A stretch of 64,000 nucleotides of DNA. Source: Dehalococcoidales bacterium (GTDB lineage Bacteria; Chloroflexota; Dehalococcoidia; Dehalococcoidales; RBG-16-60-22). Position 1 is the first letter of the stretch; each line of letters begins with the position of its first letter. The DNA is taken from contig JAQTQH010000002.1 in the NCBI GenBank assembly GCA_028712355.1, positions 5,398-69,397 of the forward strand, written 5' to 3'. Under the pieces are notes generated by a model that was given only the letters and a program-made list of their open reading frames with translations, was not told the DNA's origin and did not search any database. Position numbers and translations under genes: made by a program. Positions 3,536-52,908 of this stretch are shown piece by piece.

Positions 3536-4194
3536 CCCAAATCTATCAGCGCCTGCTGACCCGCTACGGTCTCCAGCACTGGTGGCCTGCGGAAACTCCT
3601 TTCGAGGTCATGGCAGGCGCGATTCTCACCCAGTCCACCGCCTGGGTCAACGTCGAAAAAGCTATCGGCAATCTGAAAGCCGCCGGAGCATTATCACCAC
3701 AGGCCCTGCGTGATTTGCCGCCACACGAGCTTGCTAATCTAATCCACCCCTGCGGGTATTACAATATGAAAGCCGCCAAACTCAAGGCCATGGCAGAATG
3801 GCTGCGTGAATACCATGATAATCTGGAAAAAACCTTTTCCCTCAGCCTGAGCGACCTTCGGGAAGAACTACTCGCGATATACGGCATCGGTGAAGAGACT
3901 GCCGATTCCATTATCCTATATGCCGCAAATAAACCCGCCTTCGTCATTGACGCTTATACCCGCCGCATCATGAGCCGGCTTGGTTTCAAACCATCAGAAG
4001 AAACCTATACCGCTTACCAGCGCCTTTTCATGGAAAATTTACCCCCTGATGCATCTCTTTTCAATGAGTTCCATGCTCTGCTAGTCACTCTCGCCAAAGA
4101 TGCCTGCCGTAAAAAACCATTGTGTAATTATTGCTGTCTAAAAGATATTTGCATTGCGACAGGTAGTCTGCTAAGCTTTCAAACGAGAAAGTAA
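3505..4194 (+). CDS. endonuclease III-like HhH-GPD domain protein with C-terminal Fe-S Cys cluster
   Basis: 229 aa. It has the helix-hairpin-helix segment LLAIYGIGEETADSIILYA and a C-terminal CRKKPLCNYCCLKDIC cluster. It overlaps trmO by 31 nt. Confidence 0.75.
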   Translation: MDKTPPAQTLTQIYQRLLTRYGLQHWWPAETPFEVMAGAILTQSTAWVNVEKAIGNLKAAGALSPQALRDLPPHELANLIHPCGYYNMKAAKLKAMAEWLREYHDNLEKTFSLSLSDLREELLAIYGIGEETADSIILYAANKPAFVIDAYTRRIMSRLGFKPSEETYTAYQRLFMENLPPDASLFNEFHALLVTLAKDACRKKPLCNYCCLKDICIATGSLLSFQTRK

Positions 4195-4199
4195 GAGCA

Positions 4200-5138
4200 A
4201 TGAAGCACACCCCAGATTTATCCGTCCAGCTGGCTCCCTGCAACAAGCATGGCTTGATGCTACGGAACCCGGTAATGACTGCCTCCGGAACCTTCGGCTA
4301 TGGCACGGAATACGAACATACCTTTGACATCCAGAAGTTGGGCGCTATTGTCTGTAAAGGCACTACACTCAAGCCGCGCGATGGTAATTCCCAGCCGCGG
4401 CTCGTTGAGACTGCCTCAGGTTTAATCAACTCCATCGGCCTGCAGAACATCGGCGTGGATGCTCTCATCAGCGAAAAGGCACCGGTCTGGTCGAAATGGC
4501 GGGTGCCGGTTATCGTCAATATCGCCGGCTCTTCTATCGAAGAATACGGCGATATAGCCAAGAAGCTGGACAGCGTTCCCGGTGTGAGCGGCATCGAGGT
4601 GAATATCAGCTGCCCCAACGTCAAGGAAGGCGGCGCCGAGTTCGGTGCGAGTGCTGGTCCGGCGGCGGCCGTGACGCGTGTCGTCCGGGCTGCCACCTCG
4701 CTGCCAATCATCGTGAAGCTCACGCCCAACACCGGCGAGATAGTGCCAATCGCGCGCGCCGTCGCCGATGCCGGTGCCGATGCTATTTGCCTTATCAACA
4801 CGCTGAAAGCCACCGTCATCGACATTAAGAAGCGCCGTCCCGTGCTGGGTAACATCACCGGAGGTCTTTCCGGTCCCGCCATCAAGCCGGTGGCGCTATA
4901 CATGGTTTACACCGTCGCAGGTGCGGTAAAAATACCCATAGTAGGCTGCGGCGGCATCGCTAATGGTAACGATGCCATCGAGTTCATCATGGCGGGTGCC
5001 AGCGCCGTTGAAGTCGGCACGATGAGCTTCGCTAACCCACGCGCCCCGCAGGACGTTTTGGAAGGCATCGCCAGTTTTCTGGAGCAGGAAAACATATTTG
5101 GTTTAGCCGGGATTACCGGCGCCGCCCGTAATAAGTGA
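4200..5138 (+). CDS. pyrD: dihydroorotate dehydrogenase, class 1 catalytic subunit
   Basis: 312 aa with NISCPNV (active-site Cys), GGLSGPAIKP and IVGCGGI. No pyrK-like partner gene is adjacent. Confidence 0.9.
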   Translation: MKHTPDLSVQLAPCNKHGLMLRNPVMTASGTFGYGTEYEHTFDIQKLGAIVCKGTTLKPRDGNSQPRLVETASGLINSIGLQNIGVDALISEKAPVWSKWRVPVIVNIAGSSIEEYGDIAKKLDSVPGVSGIEVNISCPNVKEGGAEFGASAGPAAAVTRVVRAATSLPIIVKLTPNTGEIVPIARAVADAGADAICLINTLKATVIDIKKRRPVLGNITGGLSGPAIKPVALYMVYTVAGAVKIPIVGCGGIANGNDAIEFIMAGASAVEVGTMSFANPRAPQDVLEGIASFLEQENIFGLAGITGAARNK

Positions 5139-5149
5139 GTGAGGAAAAT

Positions 5150-5929
5150 ATGGACTACGAAGGATTGACCCTGGAAAAAGCTGACGGCATCGCCACACTG
5201 ACTTTCAACCGTCCTGAGAAGCTCAATGCTTTCACCGACGCTATCGCCAGAGGGATGGAGGAACTGCTGCCTCAACTGAGCCTTGATGATGATGTTAAAG
5301 CGCTGATTATCACCGGTGCAGGGCGGGGTTTCTGCGCCGGACTGGATGCTAATGACCTTGCCCGGTTACGCCGCAAACCGCTTGACGAACTTTACCATCT
5401 GCTCAAAGACCTGACCCTCACCCTGGATAATTTCACAAAACCTATGATTGCCGCCATTAACGGCGTGACCGCCGGTGCAGGGCTCGCCATCGCCATCTTC
5501 TGTGATTTCCGCATCGCCGTGCCAGAAGCCAAATTCTTCGCCGGCTATAACCGCATGGCGATAACGCCAGATATCGGGATGACCTACAACCTGCCCCGCA
5601 TAGTGGGACCGACCAAGGCTACCGAAATCATGATCATCGGCGAGCCGTTGACCGCCACCGAAGCACTGCAAATCGGGCTGCTCAACCGCATCGTGCCCGC
5701 CGCCGACTTGATGCAGACCGCCCGCGAGCTTGCCGGGAAAATCGCCCGCGGACCTACAGTGTCAATCAATCTGACCCGCCAGGCGCTGAAAAAAAGCCGG
5801 GAAAACAACATAACGCAGCAGATTGACGTGGAGTTCGCCACCATGGCGACCTGCGTCAAGACGGCAGACCACGAAGAGGGCTTAAATGCTTTTCTGGAAA
5901 AACGCCCGCCCGAATTTCAGGGTAAATAG
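5150..5929 (+). CDS. enoyl-CoA hydratase/isomerase (crotonase) family protein
   Basis: MDYEGLTLEKADGIATLTFNRPEKLNAF and ITGAGRGFCAGLD are present. I prefer ATG 5150 (GAGGA 5 nt upstream) over the track start GTG 5135, which overlaps the pyrD stop. Confidence 0.85.
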   Translation: MDYEGLTLEKADGIATLTFNRPEKLNAFTDAIARGMEELLPQLSLDDDVKALIITGAGRGFCAGLDANDLARLRRKPLDELYHLLKDLTLTLDNFTKPMIAAINGVTAGAGLAIAIFCDFRIAVPEAKFFAGYNRMAITPDIGMTYNLPRIVGPTKATEIMIIGEPLTATEALQIGLLNRIVPAADLMQTARELAGKIARGPTVSINLTRQALKKSRENNITQQIDVEFATMATCVKTADHEEGLNAFLEKRPPEFQGK

Positions 5930-6583
5930 CTAACCGCGGACGGCATTCTGCTCTTTTCGATAAGCGACGAACGAATATATCACGGATACAATCGCCGCGC
6001 CGAGGATCGGCACCATTATCAATGTAATCGCGTATTTCGGGAAGAATATCCCGAGCAGCGCAATAACTCCCGCTGCTTTAAACAGTTTCCCGCCGATACG
6101 GTGCGTTTTTTCCCAGACGCTATCGCTGTTCAAAGTCCAGATTGTCCTGATGCCGATAAACCAATTCCGCTTGGCTTTTTCAATCAAAGCACCGGAGCAG
6201 TAGATTAAAAGGCCCATCGCAGGAGTCATCAACTGCGTGATATCGAACCGGGCGCCAAGGTTCCAGAGAATGGTCAGCAAATAGACGTAAAAAAGGAACA
6301 GAAAAAAAATTACCAGGAAGCGGTGGTAGGATTTCCGTAAAGTCTCAAAATTCTTTTTCAGCAGGTCGATATTAGGTAGCAGGACAAGCAAAAAAGAGAG
6401 CCCCAGCGAGAGAAACGGCATGAAGAAAAGCCCCCAGAAGCGCGACATATAGCCATTGACATTCCCCTGAGCATCCCAGTGGGAAGCCATCCGGTCCGGC
6501 ATCTGAGGATAATAATAGATGCCGATGATAAAAGATGCGATGATGATGACGGAAATGATTATCAGGCTTTTATTGAATTTCAT
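5930..6583 (-). CDS. SdpI/YhfL-like integral membrane protein (DUF1648 + SdpI)
   Basis: 217 aa and multi-TM. It has the N-terminal YPQMPDRMASHWDAQGNVNGY motif typical of DUF1648/SdpI proteins. It is convergent with the crotonase gene with zero spacer. Confidence 0.7.
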   Translation of the reverse strand: MKFNKSLIIISVIIIASFIIGIYYYPQMPDRMASHWDAQGNVNGYMSRFWGLFFMPFLSLGLSFLLVLLPNIDLLKKNFETLRKSYHRFLVIFFLFLFYVYLLTILWNLGARFDITQLMTPAMGLLIYCSGALIEKAKRNWFIGIRTIWTLNSDSVWEKTHRIGGKLFKAAGVIALLGIFFPKYAITLIMVPILGAAIVSVIYSFVAYRKEQNAVRG

Positions 6584-15519: not shown

Positions 15520-15702
15520 ATGCCTGATATGAAACTGGCGATTACGGCGGTCGAGTATATCATCGGTACCGTTATCGCTATCGCGCTGGGCGATTACCTT
15601 GGCTATAAGATAGGCAGAATGCGTCTGGCGATTATCCTGGGAATCATCGCACTGGCAATCGTTGTACTCTTTACCATCTACGCCGCCGTCGTACTTGCCT
15701 GA
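15520..15702 (+). CDS. hypothetical small membrane protein (2 TM)
   Basis: 60 aa and hydrophobic. An AAGGAG SD lies 6 nt upstream of the ATG. Confidence 0.45.
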   Translation: MPDMKLAITAVEYIIGTVIAIALGDYLGYKIGRMRLAIILGIIALAIVVLFTIYAAVVLA

Positions 15703-15709
15703 TATTGAA

Positions 15710-16501
15710 ATGCAGGGTAAAGCAGTAGTCCTTGCCGTTGATGGCATACGAATTGCCGGTCAGCTTTATTTACCTGTCAGTGATAAGCCTCCGCCCGTAG
15801 TCTGCATCTGTCACGGAATACCATCCGGCAATCCGCCCGATCCGGCGGACGGCGGCTACCCGGCGTTGGCGGAAAAGTTCACCAGCTCCGGCTTCGCCGC
15901 ATTCATCTTTAACTTCCGAGGTTGCCGTAACAGCGGTGGCAACTTCGATATCCTGGGCTGGAGCCGCGACCTTCAGGCTGTACTGGGTTATCTTTACCGG
16001 CAGCCAGAAATCGATAAGACGCACATGGCCTTGCTGGGCTTCAGCGCCGGGGCGGCGGTTTCTGCTTACGTTGCCGCCGGAAACCCTCGCATTTCCTGCG
16101 TCGCGCTATGCGCCGGTCCGGCGGAGTTCAGCTTCCTCAATGATCCGTCCCAGTCCCTCCTCGACCATTTCCGCCGCATCGGCATCATCCGCGACGCTGG
16201 TTTTCCCGTTTCTACCGAGGACTGGGCCGACGGATTTAAAACCGTGACACCCGCCAATCACATCGCCGGGATTGCGCCGCGCCCGCTACTCATCATTCAC
16301 GGTACCAGTGATGATGTCGTAGACATCAGTCATGCGCGGCGACTTTACGCCGCAGCTGGAGAGCCGAAGCAGATGATTATCATCGAAGGCGCCGGGCACC
16401 GTCTGCGGCAGGACGAGCAGGCCATGAAGCTCGTCCTGGATTGGCTCAAATTGCGGCAAAGTACAATCTTCCCTGTATCATTAGGCACTCTCCCCGCTTA
16501 A
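15710..16501 (+). CDS. alpha/beta-fold hydrolase (dienelactone hydrolase / prolyl oligopeptidase-like); 3' end altered by island insertion
   Basis: It contains LLGFSAGAA (nucleophile elbow GxSxG), IIHGTSDDVVD and EGAGHRL. The start is taken at ATG 15710 (MQGKAVVL). The last 3 codons and the stop are supplied by the inserted element. Confidence 0.8.
   Translation: MQGKAVVLAVDGIRIAGQLYLPVSDKPPPVVCICHGIPSGNPPDPADGGYPALAEKFTSSGFAAFIFNFRGCRNSGGNFDILGWSRDLQAVLGYLYRQPEIDKTHMALLGFSAGAAVSAYVAAGNPRISCVALCAGPAEFSFLNDPSQSLLDHFRRIGIIRDAGFPVSTEDWADGFKTVTPANHIAGIAPRPLLIIHGTSDDVVDISHARRLYAAAGEPKQMIIIEGAGHRLRQDEQAMKLVLDWLKLRQSTIFPVSLGTLPA
16481..16491. repeat. left copy of 11-bp direct repeat TTAGGCACTCT
   Basis: The identical 11-mer occurs at 18991-19001. 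The two copies bracket the low-GC island. Confidence 0.8.
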
Positions 16502-17377
16502 TGGTAATTGCTCTGAGGGGTGAAACGGAATTACTTCATGAACACTGGTAACTGTATAATCTGTATCAGTTAAATTGCCATCCCCATCATATTTTTCCTC
16601 AATATCCATAGTTACTCTTAAAGCATCTTGCGGTTGTATATTAAATTCTCTAGCCTGAAATTTTAATAGCCATGATTTATCAGCCATTTTAGCCATGATG
16701 TTTTTATCCCCAAACCTAAACTCCCACATAGATTCCCCTAACAAATCGGGTTTCTTTACCTTAATTATCATTCCCCTTTGTGATTTTATCGTATTAGCAG
16801 TTAATAATTCCTGTAGTTTTTCTGGAGTCAGATTAAACGTTAAATTGAATGATGCTCGCTCTTGAGGGGTTATATAAGAAACTTTGTCCTGTGGTCTTAA
16901 ATATGAGACACCAGAAGATATTTTTTGGATGCTATCTAATAATTGGGTTAGGTCTATCGGGTTGTATATCGGCAGCCATCTGGAATTACTGTTTTTAGCT
17001 TCATTTAATAATTTTTCTCTTAATGGTTGTAATTCTGTAATATTGGTAATAGTCGTTTTCCCATTCAAATAATCTATGATGTAATACTTAGCTTTGACTA
17101 AATATTTACCGACTTGCGGTTTCCAATCAAGATGGTGTAAAGCACTATCGTCAACAGCATTCAAAGCATTACTAAGCCACGTTTTTATTGAACCTGTTTC
17201 TATGTCTTGTAAAATGAGAATGGTCTCAATATTATTATCAATCGATTTAGTCAATGCTTTATCAACACTTTGGAAAGTCTCTATCAGCTCCGTCATTGCC
17301 TTAAAAACTCTCTCAGGATTTGATGTGTTTTTTTCATAGTTTATTTCTAGGCAAAAATCAGCATTCGGCTTGTTCAT
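16481..17377 (-). CDS. hypothetical protein (298 aa), island cargo
   Basis: Long low-GC ORF whose ATG lies 1 nt after the transposase stop. I recognise no Walker A, nuclease or other motif. Its last codons and stop fall inside the left direct repeat. Confidence 0.6.
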   Translation of the reverse strand: MNKPNADFCLEINYEKNTSNPERVFKAMTELIETFQSVDKALTKSIDNNIETILILQDIETGSIKTWLSNALNAVDDSALHHLDWKPQVGKYLVKAKYYIIDYLNGKTTITNITELQPLREKLLNEAKNSNSRWLPIYNPIDLTQLLDSIQKISSGVSYLRPQDKVSYITPQERASFNLTFNLTPEKLQELLTANTIKSQRGMIIKVKKPDLLGESMWEFRFGDKNIMAKMADKSWLLKFQAREFNIQPQDALRVTMDIEEKYDGDGNLTDTDYTVTSVHEVIPFHPSEQLPLSGESA

Positions 17378-17378
17378 T

Positions 17379-18413
17379 TTAGCCCACCTTCTTTAAGGGT
17401 ATCAGGGTAGCATCCATTACAGGCTTACCCTTCTTTACCGATTTACGGCGTGTTAGTCTAACCTGATAGTCTTTATCGGTTTCCCCTTCTGGTATAACAA
17501 TGTCATTCCAGTCTTTACAAGGCACTACCTTGCTTGCCGCTTGTGCTGGCGGGATATTCCCGCAACCTTCATTCTGCTTAAAGAAGTTGTAATTGATTAA
17601 CCAGCCGCTAGTTAAGAGCTTGATTGTCTCCATATCATCGTATTTCTGAAATACCTTAGTCCTTTGTTCCAGTGTCCTATGGAATCGTTCAATCTCTGCT
17701 GTTGATTCCCCGCTTGATACTGTTTTAAATGGGCCGCCCCGCCTGTGTACGGTACGGCAACCGAATTCGTCACCTACACCCATGATGTAGGAATTTAGCT
17801 TGTCAGTTACCACCACTTTCGGGTATCTCCCCGCCTTTATCCTTGCCAAGCGCATTAGTATATGGGCATCCCCGCCACTTCGGGAAAATGACGGGTGCGT
17901 AGCTAGAATGAAGTTAGTCTTGGAATCTATTATGTCCCAGAAATAGACAGTCTTACCTTCTAGCTTCATGTACGTTTCGTCTGCTATCCACGTATCACCT
18001 ATGTTTTCTGGTTTAAACTTCTTAGTCTGAGCAATAGCCTGTTTGGTAAACCGCTTTACCCAGTTCCAATAGTTACTTTCGCTCATATCTAAGTCGTGGT
18101 CTTGTCTGAATTGTTGCTGGATAGCATCAAGGGACATACCGCCATAGTACATACCAAGAGCGGAAGCTATCTGCTTTGATGGTGTTTTCATTTTGGCAAT
18201 CCGAGCGGGTTTTACCGCAATATCCGGAGCGGTCTTAGAAACTACCATTGAAGCACTACCAGAAGCACCAAGACCAGAAGAATGGCGGGTTGACCGACCA
18301 ATGTATCTAATATATTTCTGTATGACCTTGTTACCCTTGTGGATGGTTTCCACTTCGTAGTCATACCAGTTGCCTGAGCGTGGTGGTATTTCTTTAGCTC
18401 GTATGAATGTCAT
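17379..18413 (-). CDS. DDE transposase, IS6/IS240-like catalytic core with N-terminal extension
   Basis: 344 aa. The core reads TWIADETYMKLEGKTVYFWDIID ... KVVVTDKLNSY ... TAEIERFHRTLEQRTK, giving the D, D and E of an IS6-type DDE core. The N-terminus WYDYEVETIHKGNKVIQKYIRYIGR resembles transposase DNA-binding hairpins. Confidence 0.75.
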   Translation of the reverse strand: MTFIRAKEIPPRSGNWYDYEVETIHKGNKVIQKYIRYIGRSTRHSSGLGASGSASMVVSKTAPDIAVKPARIAKMKTPSKQIASALGMYYGGMSLDAIQQQFRQDHDLDMSESNYWNWVKRFTKQAIAQTKKFKPENIGDTWIADETYMKLEGKTVYFWDIIDSKTNFILATHPSFSRSGGDAHILMRLARIKAGRYPKVVVTDKLNSYIMGVGDEFGCRTVHRRGGPFKTVSSGESTAEIERFHRTLEQRTKVFQKYDDMETIKLLTSGWLINYNFFKQNEGCGNIPPAQAASKVVPCKDWNDIVIPEGETDKDYQVRLTRRKSVKKGKPVMDATLIPLKKVG

Positions 18414-18439
18414 TGCTACATCCCCTTCCCAACATTAAT

Positions 18440-18940
18440 TTATAAATTACTACCAATGATTGCACCAATAATGCCACCAATAATTGCACTACCAATCATC
18501 AAAAATAGATTCCCCCCAAATTCGTCTTTATCCTTGATGGTGAACTCTGTAACGTCAAAAAATGAGCTTGCTTTATCGCCATCTGTAAGTCTCATCTGCA
18601 ATTTGTATTGATTTTTCTTTAGCCTTCCAATATCAATAGCTTTACTCTTAAATTTCAGAACCCATAGTCTGTGAAGCTTTATCTCCCCCGCACCATACTT
18701 ATTTGAAACCTGCTCATCTGTCTCACTATTAACTAAACGCCACTCATAGCCTAATGTTTTCTTGGTTAGCAAGGTATTACGCCGTATCATTAGTTCATAA
18801 CTTATATATGTGGAATAGAAAAATGGGATGATGTCTGTTTGGTAAAAGAATGAGTACATCTTGCTTAATAAATGTGTTAGTCCTTCACAATTGACCTGAA
18901 CGGCATAGTCTCCCCATTTGATAGGATAATAAGTAGCCAT
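18440..18940 (-). CDS. hypothetical tail-anchored membrane protein (166 aa) with C-terminal glycine zipper, island cargo
   Basis: There is no signal peptide. The C-terminus FLMIGSAIIGGIIGAIIGSNL is a single GxxxG-rich TM. An SD (AAGGGGGA) lies upstream of the ATG. Confidence 0.55.
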   Translation of the reverse strand: MATYYPIKWGDYAVQVNCEGLTHLLSKMYSFFYQTDIIPFFYSTYISYELMIRRNTLLTKKTLGYEWRLVNSETDEQVSNKYGAGEIKLHRLWVLKFKSKAIDIGRLKKNQYKLQMRLTDGDKASSFFDVTEFTIKDKDEFGGNLFLMIGSAIIGGIIGAIIGSNL

Positions 18941-18979
18941 GCCAATCCCCCTTAACCAATTATTTAGCTTGTTAAGAGG

Positions 18980-19008
18980 ATTATACCTACTTAGGCACTC
19001 TTTGGCAA
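18980..19008 (-). promoter_or_regulatory. putative junction promoter reading into the island operon
   Basis: On the minus strand: TTGCCA (19008-19003, outside the repeat), a 17-nt spacer spanning the right direct repeat, then TATAAT (18985-18980, inside the element). Confidence 0.45.
18991..19001. repeat. right copy of 11-bp direct repeat TTAGGCACTCT
   Basis: Identical to 16481-16491. Confidence 0.8.
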
Positions 19009-19036
19009 GAGTGAACTTTGCCCAAATTGCACTGCG

Positions 19037-19066
19037 TTGACCAGTTGGGAACGCATAAGCTATAAT
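19037..19066 (+). promoter_or_regulatory. putative purF promoter
   Basis: TTGACC (19037-19042), an 18-nt spacer, then TATAAT (19061-19066). Confidence 0.45.
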
Positions 19067-19109: not shown

Positions 19110-20531
19110 TTGCACGAATCTTGTGCAGTATTTGGTGTTTATGCCCCAAATGAAGATGTAGCCCGGCTCACCTTCTTCGGACTATTTGCCCTGCAGCACC
19201 GCGGTCAGGAAAGCTCAGGCATAGCTACTGCTGACGGTAAGAAAATCAACCTCTTCGCTGGCATGGGGCGTGTTTCCAGCGTCTTCAGCGAAGAATCGCT
19301 GAGCCGGCTGACCGGCCACATCGCTATCGGGCACAACCGCTATTCCACCGCCGGTTCCAGCCGTATCAGCAATGCCCAGCCCATTGTCGTCGGCGCGGAT
19401 GATAACGCCATTGCTATCGCCCACAACGGAAACATCATCAACGCCCGCTACCTCCGCGAGGAACTTTCCGGGCAGGGTTACGTCTTTAAAACCACCACCG
19501 ATACCGAGGTGATTGCCAACCTGATACTGTCTTCCCCCGAAAAGGACTGCGTCGGCAAGATTCAATATGCCATGCGCCGTATCCAAGGCGCCTATTCCCT
19601 GGTGCTGATGACGAAAGACCGGCTCTTTGCCGTGCGCGATCCCTTCGGCGTGCGGCCGCTGTGTCTGGGCAAGGTTGATGGCGGATATGTCGTCTCTTCC
19701 GAAAGCTGTGCCCTCGACCATATCGGCGCAGATTTTATCCGCGAAATCACGCATGGTGAGATTGTCGCTATCGGCACCAACGGTATTGAAAGCCACCGTA
19801 TTGAATCACCACGGCAGGGTCTGTGCATTTTTGAATTTATCTACTTCGCCCGCCCGGACAGCGTGATTAACGGCCGTCTGCTTTATCCCGCCCGCCAGGC
19901 AATGGGCGCTACATTAGCCCAGGAACATCCGGTGGCGGCAGACATCGTCATGGGCGTGCCGGACTCGGCGACTGCCGCCGGAATCGGCTATGCCCATGAA
20001 TCTGGTATTCCTATCGCCGAGGGGCTTATCAAGAACCGCTACGTGGGGCGTACCTTTATTGAGCCAGACCAACGCCTGCGCGACCTGGGCGTTAAGCTGA
20101 AATTCAATCCCCTCCCGCAGATGCTGGACGGTAAGCGGTTGGTGGTCGTCGATGACAGCATTGTGCGCGGCACGACGACACCCAGTGTCGTCCGCATCCT
20201 GAAAAAAGCAGGGGCGAAGGAAATACATATGCGTATCTGTGCGCCGCCCATCCGCTACCCGTGCTTCTTCGGAGTGGATATGGCAACCCGCCGTGAACTG
20301 ATTGCCGCGCAGAAAAGCGTCGAGGAAATCCGACAGTTCATCGGTGCCGATTCCTTAGGTTATATCAGCATCCCGGGGCTGATTAAGTCAGTGGGACTAC
20401 CTCAGGATATTTTCTGCCTGGCGTGCTTCACCGGGGATTATCCCATCCCCGTCCAGCTCGAGATGGACAAGCTGGAGATGGAAAATCACACCGAAAGTGA
20501 AGGCAAGTGCATCACGACGGTCGAGTCCTAA
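19110..20531 (+). CDS. purF: amidophosphoribosyltransferase
   Basis: 473 aa with a TTG start. It has a short propeptide followed by CAVFGVY (the Ntn Cys), and VVVDDSIVRGTT (PRPP loop). Confidence 0.92.
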   Translation: MHESCAVFGVYAPNEDVARLTFFGLFALQHRGQESSGIATADGKKINLFAGMGRVSSVFSEESLSRLTGHIAIGHNRYSTAGSSRISNAQPIVVGADDNAIAIAHNGNIINARYLREELSGQGYVFKTTTDTEVIANLILSSPEKDCVGKIQYAMRRIQGAYSLVLMTKDRLFAVRDPFGVRPLCLGKVDGGYVVSSESCALDHIGADFIREITHGEIVAIGTNGIESHRIESPRQGLCIFEFIYFARPDSVINGRLLYPARQAMGATLAQEHPVAADIVMGVPDSATAAGIGYAHESGIPIAEGLIKNRYVGRTFIEPDQRLRDLGVKLKFNPLPQMLDGKRLVVVDDSIVRGTTTPSVVRILKKAGAKEIHMRICAPPIRYPCFFGVDMATRRELIAAQKSVEEIRQFIGADSLGYISIPGLIKSVGLPQDIFCLACFTGDYPIPVQLEMDKLEMENHTESEGKCITTVES

Positions 20532-45590: not shown

Positions 45591-45607
45591 GATTGCCTTG
45601 AGTGAGA

Positions 45608-45763
45608 CTATTCCTCCTCACCTTCCTTCGGCTTCTTCCCCTTCGTCTTGATTACTTCCACTTCGGGAGAAGTTGTGATGATATCGATAGCAGGAGCTAT
45701 CTTCTTGGCATCTTTTTTGGGTTTCCTGTTTTCATGCCGCTGATAATTTCCCATTCTCGCCAT
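45608..45763 (-). CDS. possible small basic protein (51 aa)
   Basis: Below the ORF-track size cutoff. Hand translation gives MARMGNYQRHENRKPKKDAKKIAPAIDIITTSPEVEVIKTKGKKPKEGEEE. An AAGGAG SD lies 7 nt upstream of ATG 45763. Confidence 0.35.
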   Translation of the reverse strand: MARMGNYQRHENRKPKKDAKKIAPAIDIITTSPEVEVIKTKGKKPKEGEEE

Positions 45764-45827
45764 AACAGAACTCCTTTCTGACTTACCATTCTTTCAGATT
45801 TCTGTTAGAAGTTTAGCAAAGAGCGGT

Positions 45828-46529
45828 TTACGATGTAAAGTCCTCACCAAGGTTCACCAGCGCTTGCTGAGCCGCCCCGCTTTCCGCCGCCTTCTTGCTC
45901 TTTCCTGAGCCGGTACCCGCCACCCTGCCGTCTACCAGCACTTCGACGGTAAAAATGCGGTCATGGTCGGGACCCGTTGTCGCCACCACCCGGTATATTG
46001 GTGATGATTTTCCGCGTGATTGCACCAACTCCTGCAGCCATGACTTATAATTTACCTCGGTGCCGCGATCTACCGCCTCTTTCAATTCAGTATAGAACCA
46101 TTTCAGCACGAATTCACGAGCTGACGCCAGACCCCGGTCAAGATAAATTGATGCGATGAATGCTTCAAGAGCTCTTGCCAGATTCGCCGGCCGGCTCCGG
46201 CCTCCCCCGGCTTCCTCGCCCCTGCCCAGACAGAGATACTCCCCGAGATTGAGCGCCTTCGCCACGCGTGCCAGGGTATCCTCCCGCACCAATGCCGAAC
46301 GCAGCTTGGTCATGCTGCCTTCATCAAGAGCAGGATAGTCAAGGTAGAGTTTTTCCGCGACGATTAGCCCCAGCACAGCATCGCCCAGGAACTCCAAACG
46401 TTCGTTGGATTGGGGGGCAAGGTCGGGGTACTCATGGCAATATGAGCTATGGCTCAAAGCCTGCTGCAACAGCAACTGGTTCTTGAAAGCTATTCCGCTT
46501 GTCTTTTGTAAATCTTCCGGGGCAGGCAT
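45828..46529 (-). CDS. rnc: ribonuclease III
   Basis: 233 aa with NERLEFLGDAVLG and a C-terminal dsRBD (GSGKSKKAAESGAAQQAL). Confidence 0.92.
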   Translation of the reverse strand: MPAPEDLQKTSGIAFKNQLLLQQALSHSSYCHEYPDLAPQSNERLEFLGDAVLGLIVAEKLYLDYPALDEGSMTKLRSALVREDTLARVAKALNLGEYLCLGRGEEAGGGRSRPANLARALEAFIASIYLDRGLASAREFVLKWFYTELKEAVDRGTEVNYKSWLQELVQSRGKSSPIYRVVATTGPDHDRIFTVEVLVDGRVAGTGSGKSKKAAESGAAQQALVNLGEDFTS

Positions 46530-46590
46530 ATCAACCTCGCTTCATAAAAAGGATAATTCGCCACGATGGCGATGTCAAGATAGCCTGCAC

Positions 46591-46620
46591 TTGATTTGTT
46601 CCTATCTATTGCAGTAAAAT
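46591..46620 (+). promoter_or_regulatory. putative promoter for tRNA-Ile
   Basis: TTGATT (46591-46596), an 18-nt spacer, then TAAAAT (46615-46620), 12 nt before the tRNA 5' end. Confidence 0.45.
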
Positions 46621-46632
46621 TAATAGTCAATT

Positions 46633-46709
46633 GGGCCATTAGCTCAGCTGGTTAGAGCACAGTCCTGATAAGACTGGGGTCTCTGGTTCGAGTCCAGAAT
46701 GGCCCACCA
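46633..46709 (+). tRNA. tRNA-Ile (anticodon GAU), CCA encoded
   Basis: Acceptor stem GGGCCAT pairs with ATGGCCC. It has the D-loop AGCTCAGCTGGTTAGAGC, the anticodon loop CTGATAA, a GGTTCGAGTCC T-arm and a terminal ACCA. Confidence 0.92.
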
Positions 46710-47008
46710 CTAGCACATCTTGAACAATTCAACAATATAAAATTCGCACAACTACCGCGCACAAGATAAATTCTACATCAGTTTTAGGTCTCAGGATTCA
46801 TCCCAATTTTCGTTTTCATCCTTAAGATTTTCAATCGACTGTTAACAATTATCTACAGATAGACCCCAATTTAATCGTTATTTGGTAACATGGATGATGA
46901 CCATACCCGATATGATATAATCAAGTTTATCGATTTAAAGCCTTAGTTTTTGCAAGATTATAGAGTGTTCAGGTAAACCCGTTAATGAAACTATAAGAGG
47001 AAATTGAT

Positions 47009-47500
47009 ATGCAGCCAAGAATTGAAGCTGTACAAGAAAAGAAACTAGTTGGGAAATGCCTTAAAATGTCTTTTTCTAAAAACAGAACTATGGAATTATG
47101 GCGAAGTTTTGCGCCGCGTATCAAAGAGATAAAGAATAGCGCAGATTCAGATTTATACTCTGTTGAAGTTTATGAATCGGGATTTTTTGATAATTTTATT
47201 CCTGAAAGAGAATTTGATAGATGGGCGGCTATTGAAGTAACAGACTTCAATGAAATTCCTGATGAAATGGAAAACATTACCTTACCGGGTGGGCTTTATG
47301 CTGTCTTTATATATATAGGACCTGCCAGCGCAGCATCAATAATCTATCAGGCTATTTTGGGAACATGGTTGCCAAAATCCGAATTCTTATTGGATAACCG
47401 GCCTCATTTTGCCTTGATGGGAACAGAATATAAAGGGGAAGACCCGGGTTCTGAAGAAGAAATTTGGATACCCATAAAACGGAAAATTAATAACAAATAA
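47009..47500 (+). CDS. GyrI-like small-molecule-binding domain protein (AraC effector-binding fold)
   Basis: 163 aa with KLVGKCLKMSF ... LPGGLYAVFIYIGP ... EIWIPI. The gene is low-GC and sits in an AT-rich stretch. Confidence 0.65.
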   Translation: MQPRIEAVQEKKLVGKCLKMSFSKNRTMELWRSFAPRIKEIKNSADSDLYSVEVYESGFFDNFIPEREFDRWAAIEVTDFNEIPDEMENITLPGGLYAVFIYIGPASAASIIYQAILGTWLPKSEFLLDNRPHFALMGTEYKGEDPGSEEEIWIPIKRKINNK

Positions 47501-47721
47501 TACTGAAATGAATCTGATTATGTTTTAAAAAGTCGAACTATCTGAATCCTAATAACCTGAATCTAAGCCCGAACAATTTAGTTCTTGATATTGTGCAGTA
47601 CCGCCCATTACTGTTTTACCTCATCGCCTTTTCGCAGACTCTTCATCGGATGTGCTACAATAATCTTAAGCTTTTTTTATCTGAAAACTGGAACATTTTT
47701 CGCGCTTAAGGAGGGATTTCC

Positions 47722-48675
47722 ATGAATTGTCTGGTCACCGGCGGCACTGGCTTCATCGGCACTTATATCATCAAGGAACTGATTAAGGATGGCGAGCAGA
47801 TAATCGCCTATGATACCTACCCGTCAACCGAACTCCACGAGAAGGTGCTTGGTAAACCGGAAAGAGAAAAAATCAAGCATGTCCAGGGCGATGTGACCGA
47901 CCTCGCCCAGCTTGTCCGCACGGTTAAAGAACACAAAATCGATAAGATAGTCCACATGGCTTATATCCTGACCAATGATACTACTGCAAACCCGCCTCTG
48001 GGTCTGAGGGTGAATATCATGGGCACAAATAACATCTTTGAGACCGCCCGGATAATGGATATTCAGAAAGTGGTCTGGGCCAGCAGTATCAGCGTTTACG
48101 GACCCGCCAGCAAATATAAGGAGAAAGTCCTCCCCAACGACGCGCCGCAATACGGGGCAAACCCCTACGGCGCCTGCAAGTCATTTAATGAACAGATGGC
48201 GACCCACTACTTCAACCGCTTCGGCGTGGACAGTATCGCGATACGTTTTGCCTGGATTTACGGTCCCGGTCAAAGGGGTACGGGCGCCAGCGCCACCATC
48301 ACCCGCGGACTCATGGAAAATCCGGGTCTGGGTAAGGAAGGACTGGTCCCCGATGGCGAAAGCATGGCGAACTGGCTTTTCGTTGAGGATGCCGCCCGTT
48401 CCGTGGCGCTTGCCTGCAAAGCAGGCAAGACCGAAACGAGAGCTTTCAATATCAGCGGGGACATCCGATCCATGAAAGAGGCTGCCGATTATGTAAAGTC
48501 TATCATCCCCGGCGCGAAGATTACTCTATCGCCCGGCAAAGGGGTACAGGCATACGCCTATGACGTAAGCCTTATCGAAAAGGAACTCGGCTTTAAACCC
48601 AAATGGTCTATGGAAGCCGGCATGAAGCAAACGATTAATACCATCCGGAAATGGCATGGCCTGCCGCCTGTCTAG
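47722..48675 (+). CDS. NAD-dependent epimerase/dehydratase (extended SDR)
   Basis: 317 aa with MNCLVTGGTGFIG and YGACK (YxxxK). Confidence 0.85.
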   Translation: MNCLVTGGTGFIGTYIIKELIKDGEQIIAYDTYPSTELHEKVLGKPEREKIKHVQGDVTDLAQLVRTVKEHKIDKIVHMAYILTNDTTANPPLGLRVNIMGTNNIFETARIMDIQKVVWASSISVYGPASKYKEKVLPNDAPQYGANPYGACKSFNEQMATHYFNRFGVDSIAIRFAWIYGPGQRGTGASATITRGLMENPGLGKEGLVPDGESMANWLFVEDAARSVALACKAGKTETRAFNISGDIRSMKEAADYVKSIIPGAKITLSPGKGVQAYAYDVSLIEKELGFKPKWSMEAGMKQTINTIRKWHGLPPV

Positions 48676-52638: not shown

Positions 52639-52908
52639 ATGGTAAGAATTAGATTACGCCGCATGGGGGGCAAGAAGCAACCCAGCTACCGACTGGTAGT
52701 CACAGATATCCGTACGCCCCGCAATGGTGCCTTCGTAGATGTCATCGGAAACTATAATCCCCGGACGAATCCGGAAACAGTGGTGATAGAGGAAGAGAAA
52801 GCCTTACACTGGCTCAAGCAGGGAGCCCAACCTACGGCTACGGTTGCCAGGCTGCTTAACAAGACTGGCATTATGGCAAAGTTCAAACCTGTCAAGGAGA
52901 AAGCATGA
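52639..52908 (+). CDS. rpsP: 30S ribosomal protein S16
   Basis: It begins MVRIRLRRMGGKKQPSYRLVV. I prefer ATG 52639 to the track GTG 52633. Confidence 0.92.
   Translation: MVRIRLRRMGGKKQPSYRLVVTDIRTPRNGAFVDVIGNYNPRTNPETVVIEEEKALHWLKQGAQPTATVARLLNKTGIMAKFKPVKEKA

Follow-up and report, generated by a model that had tools for sequence, protein, structure and literature searches.

A passenger-carrying IS6-family insertion sequence in a Dehalococcoidales genome, with a conserved subterminal motif that mimics a border repeat

The 64-kb window analysed here (64,000 nucleotides of contig JAQTQH010000002.1 from a Dehalococcoidales bacterium; "window" means this whole stretch, and coordinates are its own unless a related locus is named) contains, at positions 16455-19022, what is very probably a single, apparently intact insertion sequence (IS) of the IS6 family that carries passenger genes. 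An earlier note on this DNA had placed the borders of the same low-GC island at an 11-bp direct repeat taken for a target duplication, had reported no terminal inverted repeats (TIRs), and had concluded that the mobilisation chemistry was not the textbook one. We find TIRs outside the 11-mer copies and, abutting them, a canonical 8-bp target-site duplication (TSD), so that no unusual chemistry needs to be invoked; the element is horizontally acquired mobile DNA with conventional ends. The true ends had been overlooked because a motif conserved inside the element looks like a border repeat, a reason for caution when direct repeats at GC steps are interpreted.

Results and Discussion

Borders of the element

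The features that define the element are as follows.

16455-19022, genes on the minus strand: complete IS6-family element, 2568 bp, 39.3% GC, with TIRs and TSD at its edges; orthologous loci lack exactly this segment
16447-16454: TSD copy 1, CAAATTGC, formed by the last native hydrolase codons ahead of the IS and abutting the inverted-repeat tip
19023-19030: TSD copy 2, CAAATTGC, an exact 8-mer identical to copy 1 and abutting the other inverted-repeat tip
16455-16470, plus strand: right inverted repeat (IRR, the transposase-distal TIR), GGCAAAGTACAATCTT, matching the family inverted-repeat pattern with no mismatch and conserved in 43 elements
19007-19022, minus strand: left inverted repeat (IRL, the transposase-proximal TIR), GGCAAAGTTCACTCTT as read on the minus strand, also matching the family pattern with no mismatch

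IRL and IRR are complementary at 13 of 16 positions and were recovered by an inverted-repeat search as part of a 25-nt inverted pair at 80%. Both follow the family TIR consensus GG[C/T]AAAGT[A/T]CA[A/C]TCTT, which can also be written GGCAAAGT[A/T]CA[A/C]TCTT. The true ends of the element thus lie 26-21 bp outside the 11-mer copies; TIRs sought directly inside those copies were not found. In gene orientation the element reads IRL, a promoter-like site with the motif in its spacer, open reading frame (ORF) 3, the transposase gene, ORF1, a 10-nt spacer and IRR. We propose that the DDE transposase recognises the 16-bp imperfect TIRs and that insertion of the element duplicated 8 bp of target (CAAATTGC); by analogy with the IS6 family, a copy-in cointegrate may then have been resolved by homologous recombination, leaving a single copy and the 8-bp duplication.

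Much of what the earlier note had described stands. The string TTAGGCACTCT is exact at 16481-16491 and 18991-19001, with exactly two copies in the window, and the GC profile confirms the low-GC island: positions 16492-18990 have 39.1% GC against 53.5% for the remaining window, and form its lowest-GC 2.5-kb stretch, about 4.4 standard deviations under the mean of 52.9%. The three enclosed genes on the minus strand (16481-17377, 17379-18413 and 18440-18940) are also as described, as is the character of the island as a mobile element with an IS6-like transposase. The composition just outside, put at about 68% GC, measures 54-60%, and the duplication itself is not the 11-mer but the 8-mer CAAATTGC.

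Related elements in Dehalococcoidia

Related loci were gathered from Dehalococcoidia genome assemblies (25) and metagenomes (80), and comprise 43 distinct elements. Among the 48 related insertions for which both ends and flanks are available, 37 have exact 8-bp TSDs, with 32 distinct sequences, and a further four match at 7 of 8 TSD positions. In these relatives the 11-mer lies inside the inverted repeats and the 8-bp duplications lie outside them, contrary to the expectation that other copies would be bordered by the 11-mer. Since target duplications vary from site to site while the 11-mer is the same at unrelated sites, the 11-mer is not a target duplication. The elements have 37-45% GC regardless of the GC content of their flanks (41-58%). 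The IS6 clade that holds the window element is so far known from Dehalococcoidia alone.

Taken in the window alone, the 11-mer is only marginally above chance: its 9-mer core would be expected 0.31 times and is seen twice, a count that was also reached in 5 of 100 shuffles. It is nonetheless no chance match, because the same motif stands near both ends in each of the 43 related elements. Further copies of the element, which the earlier note thought worth seeking, were not found in the window by blastn, tblastn or the inverted-repeat pattern; a one-mismatch match to that pattern at 52875 has no adjoining motif and looks like chance.

Insertion site and empty alleles

The insertion site lies between two native features.

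15710-16501, plus strand: alpha/beta-hydrolase gene, 263 aa as now read, whose last 15 codons and stop (16455-16501) come from the IS; protein P0121 is an identical product
19037-19066, plus strand: native purF promoter-like site, TTGACC-18-TATAAT, outside the IS, intact and conserved in L029 and L031

An insertion into the 3' end of the hydrolase gene that altered just the last few residues, as the earlier note had it, is supported. The insertion point is 11 codons ahead of the hydrolase stop, and the tail HCVDQLGTHKL has been swapped for 15 IS-encoded residues, RQSTIFPVSLGTLPA, part of which is encoded by the other strand of the right-end motif. With 16455-19030 removed, the hydrolase is again 259 aa long and ends ...LKLHCVDQLGTHKL (longer form ...LDWLKLHCVDQLGTHKL), and the closest non-identical ortholog, P0122 (71% identity), also has 259 aa and ends ...LKAHCVDPSRTHKL (longer form ...LDWLKAHCVDPSRTHKL). 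Judged from these alignments the hydrolase is probably still functional, since other orthologs end at or just past the WLK position. An exact-product look-up of the 279-aa hydrolase ORF gave no match; the called start differs, P0121 beginning MQGK.

The predicted junction of the empty allele is GGCTCAAATTGCACTGCGTTGACC. At two orthologous loci, L029 and L031 (the latter from a Dehalococcoidales metagenome-assembled genome, MAG), hydrolase and purF are contiguous and the DNA aligns without a break over this junction and on into the purF promoter, which is conserved; these empty sites contain neither the 11-mer nor the inverted repeats. The empty site that the earlier note had reconstructed by joining at the 11-mer does yield the hydrolase end ...SLGTLWQE and the TGA stop at 19012-19014, but that join retains 47 bp of IS sequence and is not the ancestral one. 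In an independent assembly (L030) the filled allele is present and 100% identical.

Downstream, the purF promoter-like site starts 7 bp beyond the duplicated target and purF occupies 19110-20531. No IS-derived outward promoter was seen.

The transposase

17379-18413, minus strand: DDE transposase of the IS6/IS240 type, 344 aa, assigned from PF13610, its best NCBIfam family (IS6) and its DDE residues

The transposase scores 50.1 bits against Pfam PF13610 (cutoff 27), and the NCBIfam IS6 family (NF033587) is by far its best family match, with an E value of 3e-29 and coverage of profile positions 3-202 of 202. Residues D145, D204 and E242 are invariant in an alignment with 31 homologs. More than 630 transposase homologs were found, with 65-91% identity among the matches listed, and all matches whose source is named come from Chloroflexota/Dehalococcoidia. 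About 40 aa at its N terminus are conserved and family-specific, and a variable Ser/Gly-rich linker joins them to the rest of the protein. Sequence searches related no solved structure to the transposase, an exact-product look-up gave no match, and the family was not found in IMG/VR viral contigs.

One homolog, P0071, has a zinc-ribbon-like CxxC...CxxC insert in the otherwise low-complexity linker (alignment columns 90-118), reminiscent of the zinc-finger extensions in IS6 transposases of archaea and clostridia.

The subterminal motif

The two 11-mer copies of the window are the right-end and left-end copies of a motif that is conserved in all the elements collected.

16481-16491, minus strand: subterminal motif AGAGTGCCTAA, right-end copy (the first repeat of the earlier note), about 10 nt inside IRR; it supplies the ORF1 stop (...ESA, then stop)
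18991-19001, minus strand: subterminal motif AGAGTGCCTAA, left-end copy (the second repeat), at the family position +24 to +28 from the IRL tip
18980-19008, minus strand: promoter-like TTGCCA-17-TATAAT with the motif in its spacer, 11/12 consensus match; relatives have the same layout

The first three related loci fetched already had AGAGTGCCTAA or its core AGTGCCTAA at both edges of the low-GC block, in unrelated contexts. Across the non-redundant set, (A)GTGCCTAA is found near the right end in 43/43 elements, usually 10 nt inside the inverted repeat and in constant orientation. A second copy lies 24-28 nt inside the left tip, again in all 43; it is direct in 31, like that of the window element, and inverted in 12. 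In either left-end arrangement the motif sits in the spacer of a -35/-10-like pair (e.g. L013 2958-3005; window 19022-18975). Across elements the motif is read in two frames, as SA-stop or as VPN, so its conservation is a property of the DNA sequence and not of an encoded peptide.

We infer that the transposase may bind the motif as a second site and may also use the left-end copy to repress its own promoter. The conserved ~40 N-terminal residues are a candidate reader of the motif, and the flexible linker behind it might tolerate either orientation.

In several elements (L002 4373, L003 4962, which is the same as L036, L011 3216, L015 3962, L055 and L062) an extra upstream cargo module of about 500-585 bp is delimited by a third, internal copy of AGTGCCTAA with a TATAAT-like box after it. 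Such third copies would fit deletions between directly repeated motifs that fused elements lying in tandem.

Alternative explanations

Several observations weigh against a straightforward assignment of the window element to the IS6 family. At 2568 bp with three ORFs it is far from the family norm of 700-890 bp and a single ORF; its inverted repeats have the GG tips and the CAAA block of the published consensus (PMC7986276) and lack the cTGTt block; and its transposase reaches 102.2 bits against NF033587, under the curated cutoff of 125, and is 23% identical to the IS26 transposase over 121 residues (the IS26 query being an approximate sequence). The sub-cutoff score marks the transposase as a deep-branching IS6 relative. 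In 31 of 43 elements, moreover, the two end copies of the motif are direct rather than inverted, an odd arrangement for a transposase-binding site, and no empty allele from the same species was found, the filled allele L030 being the only near-identical sequence.

The same facts can be arranged in other ways. The boundaries drawn in the earlier note, an island of 16492-18990 with an 11-bp target duplication, no TIRs and a non-canonical mechanism, have on their side two exact copies of the 11-mer, placed where the GC content changes most steeply, and a join at the 11-mer that retains the open reading frame. We give this model next to no credence: in 43 elements at unrelated loci the gene block has this same 9-11 bp sequence on either side, conserved inverted repeats followed by site-specific 8-bp duplications lie outside it, and the orthologous empty sites carry no copy of it. 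A remnant, that is, an old, immobile IS that was domesticated or decayed and became fixed, its low GC a product of relaxed selection, would agree with the presence of one copy in the 64-kb window and with the sole near-identical public sequence being the same filled allele, L030. It too is highly improbable, although somewhat less so, given a perfect TSD, family-consensus inverted repeats, a full-length transposase with all invariant residues, a site that is empty in related species, and a low GC content that is common to the whole IS family whatever the host.

A nested origin has slightly more to recommend it and is still improbable. Here a miniature IRL-motif-IRR shell would have existed first, and site-specific integration of the gene block at its 11-bp motif would have left a copy of that motif on each side, in the manner of an att core; excision of the DNA between the motifs does leave a compact 57-bp IRL-motif-IRR unit, extra upstream modules lie between direct motif copies in L002, L003/L036, L011, L015, L055 and L062, and a mini element without transposase exists in L001. 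Yet the three ORFs contain no recombinase domain other than that of the DDE transposase, the transposase that matches the outer inverted repeats lies between the motifs in 43/43 elements, and no cargo-free shell of 50-60 bp was found in 769 kb of related loci; the left motif is also inverted in 12 of 43 elements, unlike a duplicated att core. An integrase-type island with an att core was considered and rejected, there being no tyrosine or serine recombinase and no 11-mer in the empty sites L029 and L031.

Comparison with known IS6-family elements

The window element shares with IS6/IS26-family members (IS26, IS257, IS6100) a helix-turn-helix followed by an IS240-type DDE domain, short GG-tipped TIRs and an 8-bp duplication; it differs in being three times as long as is usual and in having the extra conserved subterminal motif and the transposase N-terminal segment and linker. 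IS6-family elements generate 8-bp direct repeats, have GG tips, and form cointegrates that are resolved by homologous recombination (PMC7986276, PMC6807381); the consensus for their inverted repeats is short (15-20 bp), with GG tips and cTGTt and caaa blocks (PMC7986276). The family accepts longer members and one passenger carrier, ISDsp3 (PMC7986276, PMC6807381). This element, from Dehalococcoides sp. BAV1 (NC_009455), has 1456 bp, a 319-aa transposase, unusually long inverted repeats (28/36) and an 8-bp TSD, and forms a "solo" branch (PMC7986276, PMC6807381).

By description only, ISDsp3 resembles the window element in its Dehalococcoidia host, its passenger gene, its 8-bp TSD and its enlarged transposase, and its 36-bp inverted repeat would span the terminal block plus the subterminal motif of left ends of the inverted type. 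The window element is larger (2568 bp and 344 aa against 1456 bp and 319 aa) and has a second, downstream passenger. Judged from the published description, ISDsp3 is very likely the nearest described relative.

Insertion sequences with passenger genes within their inverted repeats are called transporter IS (tIS). The window passengers likewise lie between the inverted repeats and move with the transposase. The clade differs from tIS in that its upstream slot is filled in 43/43 elements, by genes that vary widely, encode membrane proteins for the most part and are often coupled in translation to the transposase gene; this slot looks like a built-in feature rather than occasional cargo. Passengers in the IS6 family have been described in a single member, whereas here a whole clade (43 elements, more than 630 transposase homologs) always carries them, in a host class, Dehalococcoidia, that is environmentally important and poorly studied. 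The clade offers a tractable case of a small IS that acquires and shuffles accessory genes, and its clade-wide cargo slot and subterminal motif are the parts that deserve specialist attention.

Passenger genes

The two passengers of the window element flank the transposase gene.

16481-17377, minus strand: ORF1, LAPAL-family passenger (NCBIfam NF053583), 298 aa; its last codons, ...GESA-stop, are the motif
18440-18940, minus strand: ORF3, passenger of 166 aa with a C-terminal hydrophobic segment, one predicted transmembrane segment

In 43/43 elements, the interval from the left end to the transposase gene contains at least one same-strand ORF (64-320 aa). Nearly all of these upstream ORFs have 1-4 hydrophobic segments, and most are placed between a 4-nt overlap with the transposase start and about 30 nt upstream of it. 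They are very diverse: BLAST clustering of 73 cargo ORFs gave 49 clusters, profile-profile comparison of the upstream ORF clusters linked few of them (c1-s7-s8, c5-c7) and gave no single detectable family, and 20 upstream ORFs of relatives had no match in Pfam. ORF3 itself had no match in Pfam, NCBIfam, PHROGs or PADLOC; it is 29% identical to the upstream ORFs of L012 and L061.

Cargo downstream of the transposase gene is occasional, and several elements have small ORFs there. Orphan N6/N4 DNA methyltransferase genes lie 3' of the transposase gene in L006 (5056-6507) and L010 (2888-4135), both with PF01555 at E 2e-52, and in L070 (a 532-aa ORF, assigned by BLAST clustering with L006 and L010 alone), and thus occupy the same slot as the LAPAL gene of the window element, which is the only element with such a gene among those collected.

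ORF1 scores 100.2 bits against NF053583 (cutoff 60) over residues 30-284; the literal string LAPAL is absent from the protein. A weak match to PADLOC PDC-S42 covers the C-terminal ~100 residues alone (27.6 bits, E 4.8e-7). A Dehalococcoidales MAG encodes a protein identical to ORF1, and LAPAL homologs in other contexts have at most 56% identity to ORF1. One such homolog belongs to a defence island, between a restriction-modification methylase and a Metallophos-nSTAND NTPase (L113 1490-8765), others are inside small integrase and Prim-Pol elements on at least 24 contigs (loci L115-L119), and others are on 16 IMG/VR viral contigs (L120-L135). From this genomic context our guess is an accessory or defence-related role. 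The AlphaFold model of ORF1 (pLDDT 88) gave nothing under E 0.01 in a Foldseek search against the PDB, with weak OB-fold matches, and matched uncharacterised proteins alone in a viral structure library; a literature search on the LAPAL motif and PDC-S42 found no papers.

Tandem and modular arrangements

In L001 (3668-6082, the same locus as L004) a 462-bp mini element without transposase (3676-4137) stands in tandem with a full IS (4146-6074). The mini element has its own inverted repeats, a promoter-like site, the motif and a 105-aa membrane ORF, and three copies of the 8-mer CAATCACG separate and flank the two elements, in an arrangement that resembles IS26 arrays.

L013 and L014, from one MAG (B_CHL_03), have identical right ends combined with left ends of different types and unrelated upstream ORFs, a pattern that suggests recombination between copies or an intramolecular event. 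The TSD is absent from L014 (0/8). The missing TSD of L014, the modules of L013 and L014 and the tandem of L001 are indirect hints of copy-in cointegrates.

We put forward tentatively, and with more doubt than confidence, that the elements of this clade are specialised as gene shuttles and have a cargo slot built in; mini and full elements would come to lie in tandem and be fused by deletion between direct 9-11 bp motifs, the 11-mer being at once a transposase site and a recombination seam. Module fusion of this kind would explain the third, internal motif copies.

Other features of the window

A second stretch of low GC, the second lowest in the window, lies at about 45600-48100 (2.5 kb, about 44.6% GC). 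A 60-aa hydrophobic ORF (15520-15702, plus strand) immediately precedes the hydrolase gene; it has counterparts at the same position in L029 and L030 (60 aa) and in L031 and L032 (61 aa), and is probably a real small membrane-protein gene.

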